Assembly: GCA_040754655.1 (NCBI GenBank)
Contig: JBFMCE010000104.1
Span: 1-12,358 of the forward strand
Direction of reading: 5' to 3'
Source of the DNA: Bdellovibrionota bacterium
GTDB taxonomy: Bacteria; Bdellovibrionota; UBA1018; UBA923
DNA length: 12,358 nt
Part shown: piece by piece, positions 3,933 through 12,197 of the stretch
Layout of the letters: each line of letters starts with the position of its first letter
How positions within the stretch are numbered: the first letter of the stretch is position 1
Notes under the pieces: generated by a model
What the model saw: only the letters and a program-made list of their open reading frames with translations
Database searches by the model: none
What the model was told of the DNA's origin: nothing
Made by a program: the position numbers and the translations under genes

Positions 3933-4191
3933 GGATGACCTCCTCTTCTTCGAGTTCGAGTTTTGGTTTGGAGAGCACCTGATCAATCATCAGATCGTAG
4001 TGCTTGTATTTTTGGCGGGTCTCCGGATCAGGTGTCCAAGGAGGCAGGTACGAAAACACATGACACCTGCGGTCACACATCGCATCCACGGGCTCTCCCT
4101 CTATCAAGCAGATGTGCAAGCCTCGTACCGGTACAGGATTTAGGTAAAAGCAGTTCACGCACTTTACTTTTTGGTCTTTTGGGTTCGTCAT
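3925..4191 (-). CDS. Small Cys-rich hypothetical protein, 88 aa (possible metal-binding)
   Basis: CxxC...C...CxxxC pattern, ATGA coupling to the upstream gene, and an acidic tail. Confidence 0.7.
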   Translation of the reverse strand: MTNPKDQKVKCVNCFYLNPVPVRGLHICLIEGEPVDAMCDRRCHVFSYLPPWTPDPETRQKYKHYDLMIDQVLSKPKLELEEEEVIHE

Positions 4192-4550
4192 TTTTGTGGC
4201 TCCTTGTTCTTCAGTTTTGCGAGACGCTCATCCTCTTCTTTGATGGCAGCGCGCATATCAGCGTTGTCCTCGTCGAACAATTGATCGAGGTCATCGCGCT
4301 TGGCCTTGGCAGCGGCAATTTCTCGCTTCAGGGCTTCGTTTGACTTGGAGCGTTCTTCCAGGACCTTTTGGCTTGGACGGCCTCCCCATGCGTCATCAAA
4401 AGATTGATCGAATCGTGCATCTTCAAGCTTTTGGACGGCATGCTGGTGTCGCTGCTCGTTCTTAACCTCTTCGGTTCTCATTTGAGAAAAGAACAAGACA
4501 AGAGCGGCCAGCGGAGCTGTTATTAGCAGTAGTTGGAAAATGCTTTTCAC
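4188..4550 (-). CDS. Membrane-anchored coiled-coil protein, 120 aa
   Basis: AGGAGG RBS, GTG start, N-terminal TM (IFQLLLITAPLAALVLFFS) and a charged helical remainder. Confidence 0.8.
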   Translation of the reverse strand: MKSIFQLLLITAPLAALVLFFSQMRTEEVKNEQRHQHAVQKLEDARFDQSFDDAWGGRPSQKVLEERSKSNEALKREIAAAKAKRDDLDQLFDEDNADMRAAIKEEDERLAKLKNKEPQK

Positions 4551-6856: not shown

Positions 6857-7154
6857 GACTGAATTGTGCCCGTACCTCTCGCTCAAATCAACAGCGCAAA
6901 ACGTCATTATTTGATCGTTTGTGCAGATTGTTTTTTTGAGATTTCAAAAGTCAGTTTTAGGCGTTGCGCACAGCGTCCATAACCGACGAAGAACTAAGTT
7001 TCGACTGATTGCGCATTGAACAGCAGAAGGTGTTTTTCCCCGTCGCGCAGCGGCGGCACAAGGAGCGCCAGGCAGTTACATCTAAAAAACTGCATTTCCC
7101 ATAATTATAGTTATAGGAAATGAGTATGGTCGCCACCCGCAAATGACGGGCGTG

Positions 7155-7339: not shown

Positions 7340-7523
7340 TTTCGGCCTCCTTTAACGTCAATGGTTTGCTCATTGGATTTCCCTCTACCTTACCCGACTC
7401 ATGCTAACGATGAGTCATGCTTCCTGCGCTCAGGAGCTCAGTGATTTAATCGCTCCTTCATTTTACCTGCTGATCTAAACTTGTCTTGCCTTTCCATTGT
7501 GCAGAATTCAAGGAGCATATATC

Positions 7524-7679
7524 GTGACAATCTACTTGGAAAGATTTCGCCGCTTCGCCAATCGGAGTGGAATTGGCTTCTTCGCGCCAGTCGTGGCCAT
7601 TACCCGGATGATCAGAAAACGGCGCTTCAACTTTCGGGTATCCGGATTATTGGGTGGATTCAGGATGTTGCTTGACTGA
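7524..7679 (+). CDS. Possible small basic protein (51 aa) that reads through the first 24-bp site
   Basis: AAGGAG 8 nt before a GTG; MTIYLERFRRFANRSGIGFFAPVVAITRMIRKRR... No recognised family. Confidence 0.3.
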   Translation: MTIYLERFRRFANRSGIGFFAPVVAITRMIRKRRFNFRVSGLLGGFRMLLD

Positions 7680-7953
7680 AATTTCCTGGTATCTATAATC
7701 ACTTTCGCCTGCCGCTTCGGGCGTAAAAGACACAGAGCATTCCAACCAGCCTTCAGGCAATCGCAGTAGCAAACTCCCAGAACGATCCAAGAACGATTAC
7801 GTCTGCACTTTCTGAGCGCAGCCGCGACCTTTTTTATTGGGGTATCCGGATTAAACGGTGGATGAGCTGATGTACGGTTGCCCAGCTTTCATTTTCAGAC
7901 GACGGATTATCGGGTGGATGAAGATTTTACGGGGATCGGATTATCGTGTGGAT
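7636..7953 (+). repeat. Four direct copies of the 24-bp site (7636-7659, 7840-7863, 7903-7919 partial, 7931-7953)
   Basis: GGGTATCCGGATTATTGGGTGGAT; GGGTATCCGGATTAAACGGTGGAT; CGGATTATCGGGTGGAT; GGGGATCGGATTATCGTGTGGAT. Confidence 0.9.
7672..7699 (+). promoter_or_regulatory. Near-consensus sigma-70 promoter with no ORF directly downstream
   Basis: TTGACT-N16-TATAAT. Confidence 0.65.
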
Positions 7954-7970
7954 AGCCCTCGACATTTTGG

Positions 7971-8029
7971 CGTTTAACAATGTTTGACATTACTGGATTG
8001 CAGTGTAAAATGTCTAACATTGTTTTACG
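7971..8029 (+). promoter_or_regulatory. chpSB promoter with two palindromic operators
   Basis: TTGACA (7984)-N16-TAAAAT (8006). AATGT-N3-ACATT at 7979-7991 and 8009-8021 overlap the -35 and -10 boxes, as expected for TA autorepression. Confidence 0.75.
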
Positions 8030-8043
8030 GATGAGGCATAAAT

Positions 8044-8298
8044 ATGGAACTCGCTATCAGAAAATTGGGAAACAGCACAGGAATCATTCTGCCGCCGTCA
8101 TTACTTCGCTCAATGCATCTTGCTGTTGGCAACACAATCAATGCTGAACAAGTAAAGGGAAAGCTGGTTCTAACCCCGAACGTGAAGCCCAAATATACGC
8201 TCGCAGAATTGTTGGAGAAATGTGATTCACATGCCGCCGTCCCTCAAGATGTTCAAGAGTGGGATGCCTCTCCAGTGGTCGGAAGGGAAGGCATTTGA
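8044..8298 (+). CDS. chpS: AbrB/MazE-family antitoxin, ChpS-like
   Basis: IRKLGNSTGIILP AbrB motif, YTLAELLEKCD and the W...VGRE tail, as in E. coli ChpS. Confidence 0.9.
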   Translation: MELAIRKLGNSTGIILPPSLLRSMHLAVGNTINAEQVKGKLVLTPNVKPKYTLAELLEKCDSHAAVPQDVQEWDASPVVGREGI

Positions 8299-8639
8299 GT
8301 AAAGTGTTTGAACGGGGCGATATTGTCCGAGTTTGCCTGAATCCGACAGAAGGCAAAGAATTGCAGGGAGATTACCGACCGGCACTCGTTGTCTCTCCCA
8401 GAGTATTCAATGTTCTCGGGTTGACTATGATCGCGCCCATCACTCAGGGCGGAAACTTTTCTCGTTATGGTGGGTTTGCAGTGACTTTGATGGGTAGCGG
8501 TACTGATACTCAAGGCGTAGTTCTCGCAAACATGGTCAGATCAGTAGATTTGCAATCCAGAGGGGCTAAGTTTGTTGAAAAGGCCCCATCATCTCTGGTG
8601 GACGAGGTGTTGGCTCGAATCGCATCAATTTTTGAGTGA
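8295..8639 (+). CDS. chpB: PemK/MazF-family endoribonuclease toxin, ChpB-like (114 aa)
   Basis: The TTG start overlaps the antitoxin stop. RGDIV, RPALVVS and APITQGGNFSRYGGF closely match ChpB. Confidence 0.9.
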   Translation: MSKVFERGDIVRVCLNPTEGKELQGDYRPALVVSPRVFNVLGLTMIAPITQGGNFSRYGGFAVTLMGSGTDTQGVVLANMVRSVDLQSRGAKFVEKAPSSLVDEVLARIASIFE

Positions 8640-8649
8640 GGTCAGGGAC

Positions 8650-8835
8650 ATGAGCACCAAATCAATAATTACCCACATAACTCCTGCTGATGGGAATGTC
8701 TTTGCCGACTTAGGATTCCCGCCAGAAGAAGCTGCGAGATTGAAGGCTGAATCTGATCGTGTCATCTCAAAGGAGCTGGCGCTCAAGAATTCAGCCGAGC
8801 GTATGCAAGCTTTGGAAGAAGACGACAACGAGTAA
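8650..8835 (+). pseudogene. Truncated/chimeric XRE (HigA-type) antitoxin N-terminus without an HTH, copy 1 (61 aa)
   Basis: The motif HITPADGNVFADLGFPPEEA is typical of the N-terminus of XRE antitoxins. No HTH follows. Confidence 0.65.
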
Positions 8836-8953
8836 CAATCAACGCCCCTGCGCATCGTCAGGTGTGAATACCCTTCCACACTGGAGCTGGTTTTCGATTC
8901 AGGCAAGTTCTAACCCAAAGACCGGCTCAATCCACCCGATAATCCGGATACCC
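8674..8953 (+). repeat. Direct repeat, copy 1; near-identical to 9784..10159 apart from a 96-bp indel
   Basis: Offset is 1110 up to 8811 and 1206 thereafter. I count 3 mismatches in the last 143 bp. Confidence 0.95.
8930..8953 (-). repeat. 24-bp site, inverted copy
   Basis: ATCCACCCGATAATCCGGATACCC is the reverse complement of the consensus. Confidence 0.9.
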
Positions 8954-8954
8954 C

Positions 8955-9098
8955 AAATTTGCAGGTCAGATAATGCAATACGACCATAAGCACAGGCACA
9001 TTTCAGACAAGGGAGTGCCATACAAATTCACGAGTTCATATCAACTGCTGAAAGATTTTTTCGATGATGTGGACAAGGTACTGAAGGAGGTGGAGTGA
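8955..9098 (+). pseudogene. 5'-truncated DUF6516/TumE-like toxin remnant
   Basis: KFAGQIMQYDHKHRHISDKGVPYKFTSSYQLLKDFFDDVDKVLKEVE*. The DHxH...PYxF...LLxDF pattern matches the family C-terminus as I recall it. Its stop overlaps the next ATG. Confidence 0.7.
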
Positions 9099-9457
9099 TG
9101 AATCGTGCAAAAACACTCAGAATTGGAATAATGCCGCAGGAGCAGATCCGCGAGAGGATGTTTGCCATTGCTAGAGGCGAGTATAAGCCGAAGGCAAGCG
9201 ACCCAAAGATTTGGTTCACGTCAATGAAATCACTTTCTGAAGTTCTCAGTGACGATAACCGTGCCTTACTTCGGGTGATTAAGAGTCGCCAGCCATCCTC
9301 GATTACGTCATTAGCGGAGATAACGGGCAGAAAGCCTGGCAACTTATCTAGGACTTTGAAAACAATGTCTAATTACGGTCTGGTGAGGATGGAGCGAGAG
9401 AAATCTCACGTTCGACCAGTTGTGGATGTCACTGATTTTCAAATCATCGCCGCATAA
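9098..9457 (+). CDS. MarR-like winged-helix protein (HVO_A0114-like), putative antitoxin
   Basis: IWFTSMKSLSEVLSDDNRALL...PSSITSLAEITGRKPGNLSRTLKTMSNYGLV; TGATG coupling to the remnant upstream. Confidence 0.8.
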   Translation: MNRAKTLRIGIMPQEQIRERMFAIARGEYKPKASDPKIWFTSMKSLSEVLSDDNRALLRVIKSRQPSSITSLAEITGRKPGNLSRTLKTMSNYGLVRMEREKSHVRPVVDVTDFQIIAA

Positions 9458-9499
9458 CTGATAGTCTATGACCACGATCAAATACAAGGGCTTTGCGAC

Positions 9500-9763
9500 A
9501 TGAAAACATCGCGCTATGACGTAGCAGAACATCTTCGCACACCGGAAGAAATGGCGATGTACTTGGATGCTTGCATCGAAGAATCTGACGGCGATCCGGC
9601 TTTCATCGAAAAGGCGCGTATGGATATTGCTCGTGCTCAGGACAATCAACTTATCCTGACTCGGAGAGAGTCATTGCGCTTGCTGGAGTTAATTGAAAAT
9701 CCGCCACTCAGAAATGAAAAATTCCTTCAGGCGATGAGTCTGTATCTAAGGAACAAACAGTGA
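9500..9763 (+). CDS. Chimeric antitoxin: HI1420-type addiction antidote N-terminus fused to a DUF1778/TacA-like C-terminus
   Basis: YDVAEHLRTPEEMAMYLDAC...GDPAFI...DIARA is followed not by an HTH but by LILTRRESLRLLELIENPPLRNEKFLQAM. Confidence 0.7.
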   Translation: MKTSRYDVAEHLRTPEEMAMYLDACIEESDGDPAFIEKARMDIARAQDNQLILTRRESLRLLELIENPPLRNEKFLQAMSLYLRNKQ

Positions 9764-10041
9764 GCTCGAAACCCATCATCAAACACATAACTCCTGCGGG
9801 TGGGAATGTCTTTGCCGACTTAGGATTCCCGCCAGAAGAAGCTGCGGCTCTGAAGGCGGAGTCTGATCGTGTCATCTCAAAGGAGCTGGCGCTCAAGAAT
9901 TCAGCCGAGCGTATGCAAGCTGCGCCGCACCTCTTCACTCAGAAAGAGTGGAATGCCTTGGAGACTTATGACGGTCAAGTTGTATCCGGCGATCCAGAAG
10001 GTCGTGTTCCGGAAAATTTGGAAGCAGACGACAACGAGTAA
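9760..10041 (+). pseudogene. Truncated/chimeric XRE antitoxin N-terminus without an HTH, copy 2 (93 aa)
   Basis: GTGA coupling. Same sequence as copy 1 with 32 extra residues. Confidence 0.65.
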
Positions 10042-10135
10042 CAATCAACGTCCCTGCGCATCGTCAGGTGTGAATGCCCTTCCACACTGGAGCTGGTTTT
10101 CGATTCAGGCAAGTTCTAACCCAAAGACCGGCTCA

Positions 10136-10159
10136 ATCCACCCGATAATCCGGATACCC
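10136..10159 (-). repeat. 24-bp site, inverted copy
   Basis: Identical to 8930-8953. Confidence 0.9.
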
Positions 10160-10269
10160 AGGATTTCTTTTACACCATTTGGCGATCCAAAATCTCCGTA
10201 TGCGCACAGCGCCCAGCCAAATGAAGCCGGCTGAGTTCGTTACTGAAAAATGCCAATAGCCAATTCAGG

Positions 10270-10297
10270 TTGCTTTTAAGGCCACAAAGGTTAGAAT
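10270..10297 (+). promoter_or_regulatory. Putative promoter for a short-leader or leaderless XRE transcript
   Basis: TTGCTT-N16-TAGAAT, with the ATG 8 nt downstream and no RBS. Confidence 0.4.
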
Positions 10298-10305
10298 TTG
10301 GCATT

Positions 10306-10653
10306 ATGGATATATTTAAAGCCACTATATACAAGCAAGAACACACAGTTCAGGAATGGGAGAGCATGCTTGGAGAGCAATGCAAGAGACTGCGCCTGAA
10401 CCGCAACCAAGACCAGAAGACCTTCGCTGAAGGTGCTGGAGTAAGCGTGTCTGCGCTCAAAAATCTTGAGAATGGCAATGGTGCCTCCCTCAAGACGCTG
10501 ATCAAAGTCATGCGTTATCTTGGACGCACCGACTGGCTGCAATCCCTCTCTCCTGTAGTCTCCATCAGCCCTCTTCAACTGGCTGCGCTCAAGCATCACC
10601 GTCAGCGTGCATCCTCACCCAGAAAGGCGAAGAATGGCCAGAGCCAGCCATGA
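10306..10653 (+). CDS. XRE-family HTH regulator, HipB-like (115 aa)
   Basis: LGEQCKRLRLNRNQDQKTFAEGAGVSVSALKNLENGNGASLKTLIKVMRYLG is a cro/C1 HTH. The SP...RQRAS tail is one I recall from hipA-associated regulators. Confidence 0.85.
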   Translation: MDIFKATIYKQEHTVQEWESMLGEQCKRLRLNRNQDQKTFAEGAGVSVSALKNLENGNGASLKTLIKVMRYLGRTDWLQSLSPVVSISPLQLAALKHHRQRASSPRKAKNGQSQP

Positions 10654-10863
10654 ATACCAGGCTGCCGAAGGCTGTTACGGTTGCAACAAGTAACCAGTTC
10701 TGATCACTTCAGGTCTAGGACTCCACATCCGCGCAAAAATCGCAACTCATTGAAATTGCTTGTCATAGTAATGTTTCTGCGAAAAAAGGTCCCGCCAGCA
10801 ACCTCTATTCCCGCGAGTCAGCCATCGCCCTCCTCGGCCTTACCATATGCCAGACATCGCCTC

Positions 10864-10887
10864 ACCTACCGTTTATTTCGGATACCC
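10864..10887 (-). repeat. 24-bp site, degenerate inverted copy
   Basis: The reverse complement GGGTATCCGAAATAAACGGTAGGT matches the 7840 copy at 20/24. TTTCGGGTATCCG is a perfect 13-bp inverted match between 7632-7644 and 10879-10891. Confidence 0.7.
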
Positions 10888-10964
10888 GAAAAATCTTCAC
10901 AAACGATCATTTTTTGATGTTTTCAAATCTCAGAATCGCCTGCTTCGTTCGTTAAGATTGCCTC

Positions 10965-11207
10965 ATGAGTTCAACACAATCTCTAATGAGGTTCCTTACT
11001 AACGCAGAGCTGGCGGAGCTGACTGAGCGCAAGCGCAAAGCAGACCAGATTGCTTGGCTAAAGCGGAATAGCTTCAAGTTTGCCATCGGCGCGAACGGCC
11101 ACCCTCGGGTGCTGCATGATCACGTCCAGGCAAAGCTGTGCGGCGGAATAGTTGAGGCTGCCAATGATGTCATCCCAACTATTGAGCCAAACTGGGCTGC
11201 AATCTAA
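10965..11207 (+). CDS. Excisionase-like protein (DUF4224 family)
   Basis: FLTNAELAELT.RKR...QIAWL...F..GANGHPRV...PNWAA, immediately upstream of the integrase. The start may be the second ATG (MRFLT). Confidence 0.85.
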   Translation: MSSTQSLMRFLTNAELAELTERKRKADQIAWLKRNSFKFAIGANGHPRVLHDHVQAKLCGGIVEAANDVIPTIEPNWAAI

Positions 11208-11216
11208 ACTCGCGCA

Positions 11217-12197
11217 ATGGGCCGCAAAAGAACTATTAACCTCGATCTGCCGCCGCGCATGACAATCAAGGGGAAGTCGTATTATCACGTCTCTACAACC
11301 ATTCCCAGGAAATGGACGAACCTCGGAAAGGACCTCTCGGTTGCCAAAAGACTTTGGGCTGAGCTAGAAGGCGAACTTATTGAGCCTGACATCAAGACCT
11401 TTTCCGGCATTGCGGCCCGATACCGTAAAGAAGTATTTCCAACTAAGGCCCCTCTAACTCAACGCGACAATGAAAGAGAATTGAGTAGGCTTGAATCTGT
11501 ATTTGGTGGCATGCCAATTGATGCTATTAAGCCATTCCACATCAAGCGCTATCTTGTCGAACGGGGAAAAACTGCCAAGGTTCGCGCCAACCGCGAACGC
11601 GCACTCTTCAGTCATGTATTCAACTTCGCAAGGCAGCATGGCTACACTGATGCCACAAACCCATGTGCAGGCGTCAAGGGACACAGGGAAACGGGAAGAG
11701 ACCGTTATGTTGAAGACGATGAGTTTTTAGCTGTGTGGAACAAGGCTGACCAATCCGTTCAAGACGCGATGGACATGGCGCACCTCACAGGCCAGCGTCC
11801 ATCAGACTTACTCAAGATCAACCGCCAAGATATTCGAAACGACGCTCTATTCCTGGAACAGGGAAAGACCGGCAAGAAGTTGCGGATTGAGATTGTGGGC
11901 GAGCTGGAATATCTCATAGAACGCATCCTCAGTCGTTCATACAACTCTAAGGGATGTGATGCACTCCTTCAAAACGGAGAAGGTGAGCGGCTGTCGAAAG
12001 GAACCCTGCGCAGCCGATTCGACAAAGCCAGAAAGACAGCGGGGGTGAGTTTTCAATTCCGCGACATCCGTGCCAAGACTGCCACCGACACAGAGAACCT
12101 TGCTCATGCTCAACGCCTACTCGGCCACAAGACGAGAACTATGACGGAGCACTACACCCGAAACCGAAAAGGCGACAAAGTAAGTCCGCTCAAGTAG
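11217..12197 (+). CDS. int: Phage-type tyrosine integrase, 326 aa
   Basis: Catalytic motifs TGQRPSD (R), QGKTG (K), FRDIR, LLGH and HYTR (Y); the N-terminus MGRKR...LPPRM is typical of this group. Confidence 0.95.
   Translation: MGRKRTINLDLPPRMTIKGKSYYHVSTTIPRKWTNLGKDLSVAKRLWAELEGELIEPDIKTFSGIAARYRKEVFPTKAPLTQRDNERELSRLESVFGGMPIDAIKPFHIKRYLVERGKTAKVRANRERALFSHVFNFARQHGYTDATNPCAGVKGHRETGRDRYVEDDEFLAVWNKADQSVQDAMDMAHLTGQRPSDLLKINRQDIRNDALFLEQGKTGKKLRIEIVGELEYLIERILSRSYNSKGCDALLQNGEGERLSKGTLRSRFDKARKTAGVSFQFRDIRAKTATDTENLAHAQRLLGHKTRTMTEHYTRNRKGDKVSPLK

Follow-up and report, generated by a model that had tools for sequence, protein, structure and literature searches.

The closest described counterparts of the locus considered here belong to the ISL3 family of insertion sequences (IS). 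The locus is a group of toxin–antitoxin (TA) genes punctuated by a repeated 24-bp site, and it lies on contig JBFMCE010000104.1 of a Bdellovibrionota bacterium (assembly GCA_040754655.1; 3.78 Mb in 196 contigs, 90% complete). The window analysed is this whole contig of 12,358 nucleotides. ISPst2, a member of the ISL3 family, is listed with a length of 2,985 bp, 2 passenger genes, 8-bp direct repeats, the left inverted repeat (IRL) GGGTATCCGGAATTTCTGGTTGAT and the right inverted repeat (IRR) GGGTATACGGATTTAATGGTTGAT (Table 3, PMC6305408). The repeats of CLJ-ISL3 are given as the same as those of ISPst2, and the element as 99% identical to ISPst2, ISPpu12 and IS1396 (bioRxiv 10.1101/452334). For ISPpu12, imperfect 24-bp repeats are reported together with 8-bp duplications and a promoter inside the element (PMC3735179), and transposition through a circular intermediate, by a copy-out-paste-in route, is stated for the family (bioRxiv 10.1101/2023.06.07.543989).

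Two further kinds of system resemble the locus in part. In the Tn3 family, type II TA pairs of unrelated families are reported at one fixed position beside the transposase gene, unlike ordinary passengers, and a regulatory link of the TA promoters to tnpA has been proposed (Lima-Mendez et al. 2020, PMC7157771). The concept of the mobile insertion cassette (MIC) appears in the same source. Like the miniature inverted-repeat transposable elements (MITEs), such IS derivatives have inverted repeats that bound their contents without a transposase, as is the case in the window; the window units differ in being rearranged and free of target duplications, and mobilisation in trans is putative for all of them. 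Integron arrays and pdif modules share a superficial likeness with the locus, since in them short conserved sites punctuate small modules, many of which are TA pairs.

The 24-bp site and the ends of ISL3-family elements

A sequence-only reading of the contig had described the site as unrecognised. It proposed that the copies are either nested ends of a non-autonomous element or sites at which a recombinase collects TA modules. Positions 7400-11100 were read directly, and repeat and pattern searches were run on the window. All seven copies, four direct ones on the left and three inverted ones behind the TA blocks, are present where that reading had placed them. The consensus GGGTATCCGGATTATCGGGTGGAT occurs at 7636-7659 (+, 1 mismatch), 7840-7863 (+, 3 mismatches), 8930-8953 (-, 0 mismatches) and 10136-10159 (-, 0 mismatches), against a chance expectation of 0 matches in 200 dinucleotide-preserving shuffles. 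The copy at 7903 is a 17-nt exact match (7903-7919) within a 24-nt inner repeat at 7896-7919, which has 6 mismatches in 24. The degenerate copy at 7930-7953, earlier placed at 7931, shows 6 substitutions, a count that falls to 3 differences once a single 1-base deletion is admitted. The last copy, 10864-10887 (-), is likewise degenerate and differs from the left-end type of repeat at 4 of 30 positions.

The site is of a known kind. The window copies are identical to the published ISPst2 and CLJ-ISL3 repeats at 18-20 of 24 positions, with 20 of 24 for the copy at 7840-7863 compared with the ISPst2 IRR. Terminal inverted repeats of the family type, 24 bp long and of the form GGGTATCCGGA...GGT(G/T)GAT, are present, and a left and a right type bracket the segment 7840-8953. 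ISPpu12 on plasmid pWW0, located through its RefSeq annotation, has the same end type and an inner repeat 56 bp into its left end. Because the published repeats match so closely and ISPpu12 on pWW0 shares the two-repeat left end, the 24-bp site very probably forms the terminal inverted repeats of an IS that belongs to the ISL3 family, in a subgroup that is related to ISPpu12 and yet distinct, and the TA blocks are nested, decayed, transposase-less derivatives of such elements. This assignment is directly supported by the identity of the ends, the link to an ISL3 transposase, the 8-bp duplications in relatives and the remnants of tnpA and antitoxin genes. The description of the site as unrecognised is thus replaced, at the level of family and group, by the terminal repeat of a known IS.

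The likeness to the ISPpu12/ISPst2/IS1396 group extends beyond the termini. In both groups the imperfect 24-bp repeats start with GGGTATCCGGA/GGGTATACGGA, a second repeat lies 56 bp inside the left end, the duplications are 8 bp long, an internal promoter is present, and passengers stand upstream of tnpA in the same orientation. The passengers themselves differ: those of the ISPpu12 group are metal-related regulator, transporter and lspA genes, whereas those of the clade to which the window sites belong are TA pairs. Unlike ISPpu12, the window copies have neither a transposase gene nor target duplications.

A repeat of the repetitive extragenic palindromic (REP) type, spread over the genome, was a further possibility. 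In the window's own assembly the consensus has four matches at up to 3 mismatches, all on this contig, and a search of the end sequences and the adjoining sequence across that assembly found nothing outside it. A REP-type repeat is therefore excluded. Among 60 related genomes there is one weak site match, with 3 mismatches.

Relatives that carry the site and their transposase

The exact site pattern was found in public collections on 13 genome contigs, 19 metagenome contigs and 1 viral contig. The genome contigs derive from Gallionellaceae, Sideroxydans, Nitrosomonas, Rhodoferax, a Saprospiraceae metagenome-assembled genome (MAG), Salinicola and other proteobacterial MAGs; loci are cited below by number (L011 and so on). 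The copies fall into two types. The left-end type, GGGTATCCGGATTAAACGGTGGAT, is always accompanied by a second copy, (C/T)AGACTCCGGATTATCGGGTGGAT, 56 bp further inward, and this outer-to-inner spacing is found in L011, L013, L017, L018, L025, L037, L039 and L054. The right-end type, GGGTATCCGGATTATCGGGTGGAT, is followed by TGAGCC..TTTGGGTTAG. Complete elements consist of one left and one right end in inverted orientation, 1.0-2.5 kb apart. Perfect 8-bp direct target duplications, with an A+T content of 75-100%, flank eight of the ten independent complete elements outside the window:

L011: GAAATTTC
L013: ATTTTATT
L018: TATTTTTC
L019: AAGATTAT
L029: TTTAATTG
L037: CTAAAAAC
L043: GATTTTAT
L039b: AACATAAC

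The long elements encode a protein of about 450 aa with the Pfam domains Zn_ribbon_ISL3, HTH_Tnp_ISL3 and DDE_Tnp_ISL3 (E 1e-52 to 6e-57). The DDE_Tnp_ISL3 gene lies between the ends in L011, L018, L019, L037, L043 and the plasmid copies. The enzyme that co-occurs with the site, whose identification the sequence-only reading had called for, is thus an ISL3 DDE transposase: a relative of the L019 type is encoded on 14 of the 33 site-bearing contigs and in 19 of the 42 loci drawn from them. Recent transposition is pointed to by L011 and L019, because these are 99.88% identical over 2510 bp and yet stand at different insertion sites with different duplications. Matches in L016, L017, L021, L041, L049 and L053 lie about 100-330 bp from contig ends, a pattern typical of multi-copy IS.

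Transposase-less derivatives occur elsewhere too. The hicAB relatives without a transposase are found at two sites, one being L013 with its duplication and the other a near copy, L039a/L040, at a different place; derivatives of the L013 lineage are thus present in several genomes. A further MITE-like element of 1,011 bp without long ORFs (L039 1842-2852, the L039b of the list above) has the variant repeats GGGTATCCGGATTTTCCGGTGGAT and is inserted 12 bp past the right end of the hicAB element, so that elements of the group cluster outside the window as well. In L010 (2991-6024) a solo repeat of the right-end type stands beside a gene pair with the Pfam domains PRTase-CE and ORC-CDC6-like; this pair may be defence-type cargo or merely a neighbour.

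The relatives bear on the other half of the earlier proposal, according to which the sites would be recombination sites of the adjacent tyrosine integrase, or of a recombinase acting in trans, that gathers TA cassettes in the manner of an integron or of pdif modules. A DUF4224 excisionase-like gene and a phage-type integrase do adjoin the last site (10965-12197), the TA blocks are punctuated by the site, and its core ATCCGGAT is palindromic. However, homologues of the window's integrase or DUF4224 protein are found in 0 of the 42 site-bearing loci, against the 19 that have the ISL3 transposase, and the integrase's nearest relative (L063, 79% identity) shares only the xis-int pair with the window and has no sites. 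Target duplications of the kind found in the relatives are a mark of DDE transposition and not of conservative site-specific recombination, and they speak against cassette recombination. The left and right repeats are, moreover, inverted around each unit, whereas cassette sites would be direct. With matches to the generic Phage_integrase and Phage_int_M domains and with its DUF4224 neighbour, the window's integrase does not look like the IntI of an integron with attI, and the sites are not directly oriented as attC sites would be; nor does anything link the sites to XerCD. No attC-like or dif-like structure was seen when the sequence was read by eye, without a model scan. Recombination by an integrase is accordingly very improbable, and the notion of sites that collect TA modules gives way to that of IS ends.

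The duplications also separate the sites from the ends of a Tn3-family derivative, either a MIC or a Tn3-derived inverted-repeat miniature element (TIME), moved by a Tn3-type transposase. For such an origin speak the first bases of the ends, GGG(G), the integral TA pairs of many Tn3-family transposons and the transposase-less MICs known in that family (PMC7157771). Nevertheless, all eight duplications found are 8 bp long, while the Tn3-family examples have 5 bp (Table 3, PMC6305408); the conserved repeat measures 24 bp and not the 38-40 bp (GGGG...TAAG) of the Tn3 family, and full copies carry the ISL3 transposase of about 450 aa in place of a Tn3 TnpA of about 1000 aa. This origin is hardly credible, even less so than the integrase one.

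The sites may also be thought of as operators or iterons of a host-element regulator or replication protein, reused around TA promoters. Four direct copies are clustered at 7636-7953, upstream of promoter-like sites, and a possible replication-type gene lies on the left of the contig, though without a family match. Against this, the same sites stand in unrelated contexts on at least 33 contigs from several bacterial groups, always as the outer boundary of an insertion with a duplicated target, and homology with the relatives ends exactly at the outer site end. A primary role as a regulatory site is thus most unlikely; a secondary one is possible for the inner repeat, which lies beside a promoter.

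Several observations weigh against the assignment to ISL3. Two of the ten complete relatives, L027 and L039a, are without a target duplication, and the ISPpu12 transposase is only 38.7% identical to that of L019. A transposase with matching ends was not found in the window's own assembly, whose only ISL3 transposase, on contig C145, is 24.5% identical to that of L019 and has different ends. In the class of the window, 127 species genomes including its own contain no close relative of the L019 transposase at E<=1e-60. In the window itself every left-type site was paired with every right-type site, and no pairing carries an 8-bp duplication. Finally, simple insertion accounts neither for the additional copy at 7930 nor for the inverted orientation, in place of a direct one, of the flanks at 7930 and 10864.

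The gene on contig C145 (L026 1483-2784, a 408-aa frame) adjoins a tRNA gene. One end of its element, GGGTCTCCTCGATTGATGGTGGAT, follows the general ISL3 repeat pattern (GGGT.TCC...GGTGGAT) that is also seen in the window sites.

The IS fragments of the window are 80-99% identical to copies in a Gallionellaceae MAG. Since the genomes of the class contain no close relative of the transposase and the fragments are nevertheless this close to Gallionellaceae copies, the 12.4-kb contig may have been transferred horizontally in recent time or may be mis-binned.

Anatomy of the window and its possible origin

The ends in the window comprise one complete left end, one probably fused left end, two degenerate ends and two right ends, both accompanied by the final 12 tnpA codons. 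Among them lie mazEF, a truncated DUF6516 gene and antitoxin fragments. From left to right the features are as follows:

7636-7659, +: left-end repeat in which the first bases of the outer repeat (GGGTATCC) are joined to the remainder of the inner repeat and the sequence downstream of it
7660-7839, +: leader, 77-85% identical to the leaders of L011, L019 and L025, ending exactly after the T-run, where the next insertion cuts it
7840-7863, +: outer left repeat (IRL), GGGTATCCGGATTAAACGGTGGAT, an identical 24-mer being present at the left ends of L011, L013, L019, L025, L037 and others
7896-7919, +: inner (subterminal) left repeat, 56 bp start-to-start from the outer one
7930-7953, +: degenerate extra copy; its outer flank TGAAGATTTTAC recurs in inverted form as the flank of the site at 10864-10887
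8044-8298, +: mazE (Pfam MazE_antitoxin, 4e-06)
8301-8639, +: mazF (Pfam PemK_toxin, 1e-22)
8650-8835, +: remnant ORF of 61 aa, beginning with ~47 residues from the N-terminus of the HTH_37/XRE antitoxin of L025/L037-type elements
8875-8913, +: 3′ remnant of tnpA, the last 12 codons (STLELVFDSGKF) and the stop codon, 16 nt before the right end
8930-8953, -: right-end repeat (IRR), GGGTATCCGGATTATCGGGTGGAT, 0 mismatches, the DUF6516 gene being interrupted just outside it
8973-9098, +: truncated DUF6516 ('TumE-like') gene, C-terminal 41 codons only
9098-9457, +: HVO_A0114-type HTH partner of DUF6516
9500-9763, +: chimeric ORF of 87 aa, in which 47 residues from the N-terminus of the HI1420-type antidote of L011-type elements stand first and are joined to an unrelated remainder
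9760-10041, +: paralogue of the 8650-8835 remnant, 93 aa, with the same antitoxin N-terminus (tblastn 77.5% identity, E 2e-18)
10081-10119, +: second 3′ remnant of tnpA, 16 nt from the right end as in the first copy
10136-10159, -: second right-end repeat (IRR), 0 mismatches
10864-10887, -: degenerate solo left-end-type repeat facing leftwards, 79-85% identical to the IRL of L011, L013 and L022

The window has no Pfam transposase match, and only the last 12 tnpA codons are left, twice. Because the DDE_Tnp_ISL3 gene is reduced to these codons, the units are derivatives and not autonomous IS. The remnant at 8875-8913 is identical to the C-terminus of the L019 transposase at 10 of 12 residues (tblastn, E 0.17, a short match), and the DNA of 8875-8953 is 81-99% identical to the tnpA-3′/IRR regions of L011, L013, L016, L018 and L019. 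The 24-mer of 8930-8953 stands at the right ends of L011, L013, L018, L019, L037 and L043. The unit 7840-8953 thus has IS-type inverted repeats at both ends and passenger genes with remnants inside, without a transposase, as in a MIC- or MITE-like derivative. Its complete left end (7840-7919) is 90% identical to that of L013. The earlier statements that neither a transposase nor a target duplication can be seen are correct for the window itself, and 'nested ends of a non-autonomous element' proved to be essentially the right description.

The passengers are decayed to different degrees. For the mazEF pair a separate promoter-like site lies at 7984-8011, within an inverted repeat (7971-7991/8009-8029). 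The 8650-8835 remnant matches its antitoxin at 68% identity (tblastn, E 6e-17) and has no Pfam match, while the full-length form matches HTH_37. For the 87-aa chimera the identity is 83% (E 6e-24), with Pfam dnstrm_HI1420 over residues 3-47 only. The same chimera is present in L013 (6700-6963) and is thereby conserved in two genomes; it could be a fragment left by decay, or else a small protein that is new. Taken as a whole, the block 9486-10160 aligns over 693 bp, at 80.5% identity, with the right half of the hicAB element of L013, which has no transposase. Of a 121-aa DUF6516 protein from a Cupriavidus plasmid, the 41-codon ORF at 8973-9098 covers the last third only, and of PHROG 16135 it covers positions 61-92 of 95. 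Because so little of the protein is covered, the break in the gene lies no more than 26 bp from the outer end of the 8930-8953 repeat.

Two breakpoints had been said to coincide with the outer end of the site, namely the stop of a duplication and the start of the TumE-like remnant, and both do. The duplications 8651-8811/9761-9921 (90%) and 8811-8960/10017-10166 (96%) are confirmed. Their homology stops at the outer site ends, 8953 and 10159, the few extra matching bases being AT-rich flank.

The leftmost end is probably a fusion. The site at 7636-7659 aligns with the inner repeat of L011 and L025, and the leader lies directly downstream; from the alignment it would be a left end from which the 56 bp separating the two repeats were deleted, CCGGATTA being common to both repeats.

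The arrangement could have come about as follows. The ISL3 DDE transposase would bind and cut the 24-bp repeats, and elements of the group would insert into AT-rich runs with duplication of 8 bp. The unit 7840-8953 may have landed in the T-run of the leader of a second element, that with the left end at 7636. The abutment of the 8953 end on the middle of the DUF6516 gene without a duplication could stem from intramolecular transposition or from an IS-mediated adjacent deletion starting at that end. Internal deletions would have taken out toxins and tnpA and fused antitoxin fragments. The cassette-like look would then result from shared ends, internal genes that were swapped and later lost, mutual or adjacent insertions, and deletions that stop exactly at the ends. 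The array would consist of fossils, movable only if a cognate transposase arrives in trans.

As no end pairing carries a target duplication, the window units are read as rearranged remnants. The left flanks are CAACTTTC and TTTTATTG, the right flanks CAAATTTG, AGGATTTC and GAAAAATC. The best pairing, CAACTTTC with CAAATTTG, agrees at 6 of 8 positions; it is not a target duplication and is ascribed to the preference for AT-rich targets. Three origins were considered for the inverted flanks TGAAGATTTTAC/GAAAAATCTTCA of the copies at 7930 and 10864, namely that the target was palindromic, that an inversion took place between copies or that a junction was duplicated; none of them fits cleanly.

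A 35-nt host inverted repeat (80%), 6898-6932/10889-10923, brackets the whole IS/TA region. Host sequence directly next to the copy at 10864-10887 repeats 6898-6932 in inverted orientation, and the outer flanks of the 7930 (7919-7930) and 10864 copies are inverted copies of part of this motif.

A DNA search with 7400-11000 gave no match in the phage collection, and in the plasmid collection only individual TA genes and one ISPpu12-type left end were matched. For a 309-aa protein encoded on the left, used as a guide to the host element or an empty site, viral contigs yielded no relative. The ORFs of the left half are all without a Pfam family, and only one weak PHROG match was obtained there (ORF 4188-4550, phrog_31957, of unknown function, E 6e-4). 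The same half contains tandem duplicates, 2051-2276 and 2710-2933 (75-93% identical), that include a terminator-like GC hairpin (2136-2163/2794-2821). The ORFs 845-1276 and 2327-2779, in duplicated segments, encode paralogous secreted-looking small proteins.

The intact element, its leader and its slot for toxin–antitoxin pairs

In other genomes the intact element follows one order: outer and inner left repeat, promoter, leader, two-gene TA module, tnpA and right end, with the tnpA stop codon 16 nt before the right-end repeat. The leader, about 150 nt long, lies between the inner left repeat and the TA slot and has a sigma-70-like promoter and a terminator-like stem with a T-run. Its locations are:

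window: 7660-7839
L011: 8215-8430 (-)
L025: 2760-2975
L037: 1842-2060
L018: 3712-3925
L043: 3340-3530 (-)

In the window the promoter-like site is at 7672-7699 (TTGACT-16-TATAAT), with 11 of 12 in the promoter scan. The consensus fold of seven sequences has 29 pairs, 7 of them with compensatory changes, and includes a GC hairpin whose loop is CUUCGG as well as a long stem that resembles a terminator and precedes TTTTTAT. An Rfam scan of the window and three full elements returned no family for the leader or the sites. The leader could be an attenuator or a small RNA that controls the expression of the TA genes and tnpA.

The segment between the leader and tnpA is exchangeable. In L011, L037 and L018 the left end with the leader is 75-81% identical and tnpA with the right end 86-88%, and the intervening 650-770 bp are unrelated. 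Ten elements with a readable upstream region and a transposase at least 53% identical to that of L019 were considered, the rearranged L041 being left out. All ten have a TA-like pair directly upstream of tnpA, and the pairs are of five unrelated types:

Gp49 + HI1420 antidote: L011, L019
Gp49 + HTH_37: L025/L055, L037
DUF4160 + DUF2442 (putative TA): L018, L043
RelE/ParE + XRE: Azonexus plasmid
HigB + regulator: Stutzerimonas, Azospira and Aeromonas plasmids, the Aeromonas record listing the toxin gene only

L041 is a rearranged pair of elements in which a PemK toxin gene stands beside a partial tnpA. More distant ISL3 relatives (~44% identity) have other passengers, namely a methylase, a pRiA4b ORF-3 protein and hypothetical proteins.

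The likeness to the TA modules of the Tn3 family lies in the fixed position of the pair beside the transposase gene, here directly upstream of tnpA. The two systems differ in family, transposase, ends (38-40 bp in the Tn3 family, 24 bp here) and duplication (5 bp as opposed to 8 bp), and here there is no resolvase or res. Full-text literature searches, which did not cover ISfinder and TnCentral, found no description of TA pairs as passengers of ISL3 elements, and passages of PMC4226512, PMC10214660 and PMC10886379 contain nothing relevant to them. The site itself is of a known kind; the five unrelated TA types in the slot upstream of tnpA may be a modest novelty and are perhaps undescribed.

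A functional reading of this slot can be offered tentatively, and it is rather less likely to hold than to fail. The type II TA operon would be an integral and exchangeable part of the transposition module, co-transcribed with tnpA; autoregulation by the antitoxin would gate the transposase, and the toxin would penalise loss of the element. Transposase-less descendants moved in trans, with hicAB, mazEF or DUF6516 and its HTH partner, would then pile up. If this is true, transposons would supply a route by which TA arrays form, a functional counterpart of integron cassette arrays and of the TA modules of the Tn3 family.

With the assignment of the punctuating site to ordinary IS ends, a candidate novel recombination system is removed, and the breakpoints at the outer edge of the site become the expected products of insertion by an IS and of the deletions that it mediates. 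Annotation pipelines that register nothing here but TA genes and short ORFs would overlook the fused antitoxin and transposase fragments among the latter. The analysis also describes an ISL3 subgroup whose left end contains two repeats, whose leader is conserved and in which interchangeable TA pairs occupy one fixed slot upstream of tnpA. The idea of TA pairs as parts of the transposition module, so far argued for Tn3-family transposons, is thereby extended to a simple IS family, and a mechanism is offered for the spread and clustering of TA genes in mobile elements.

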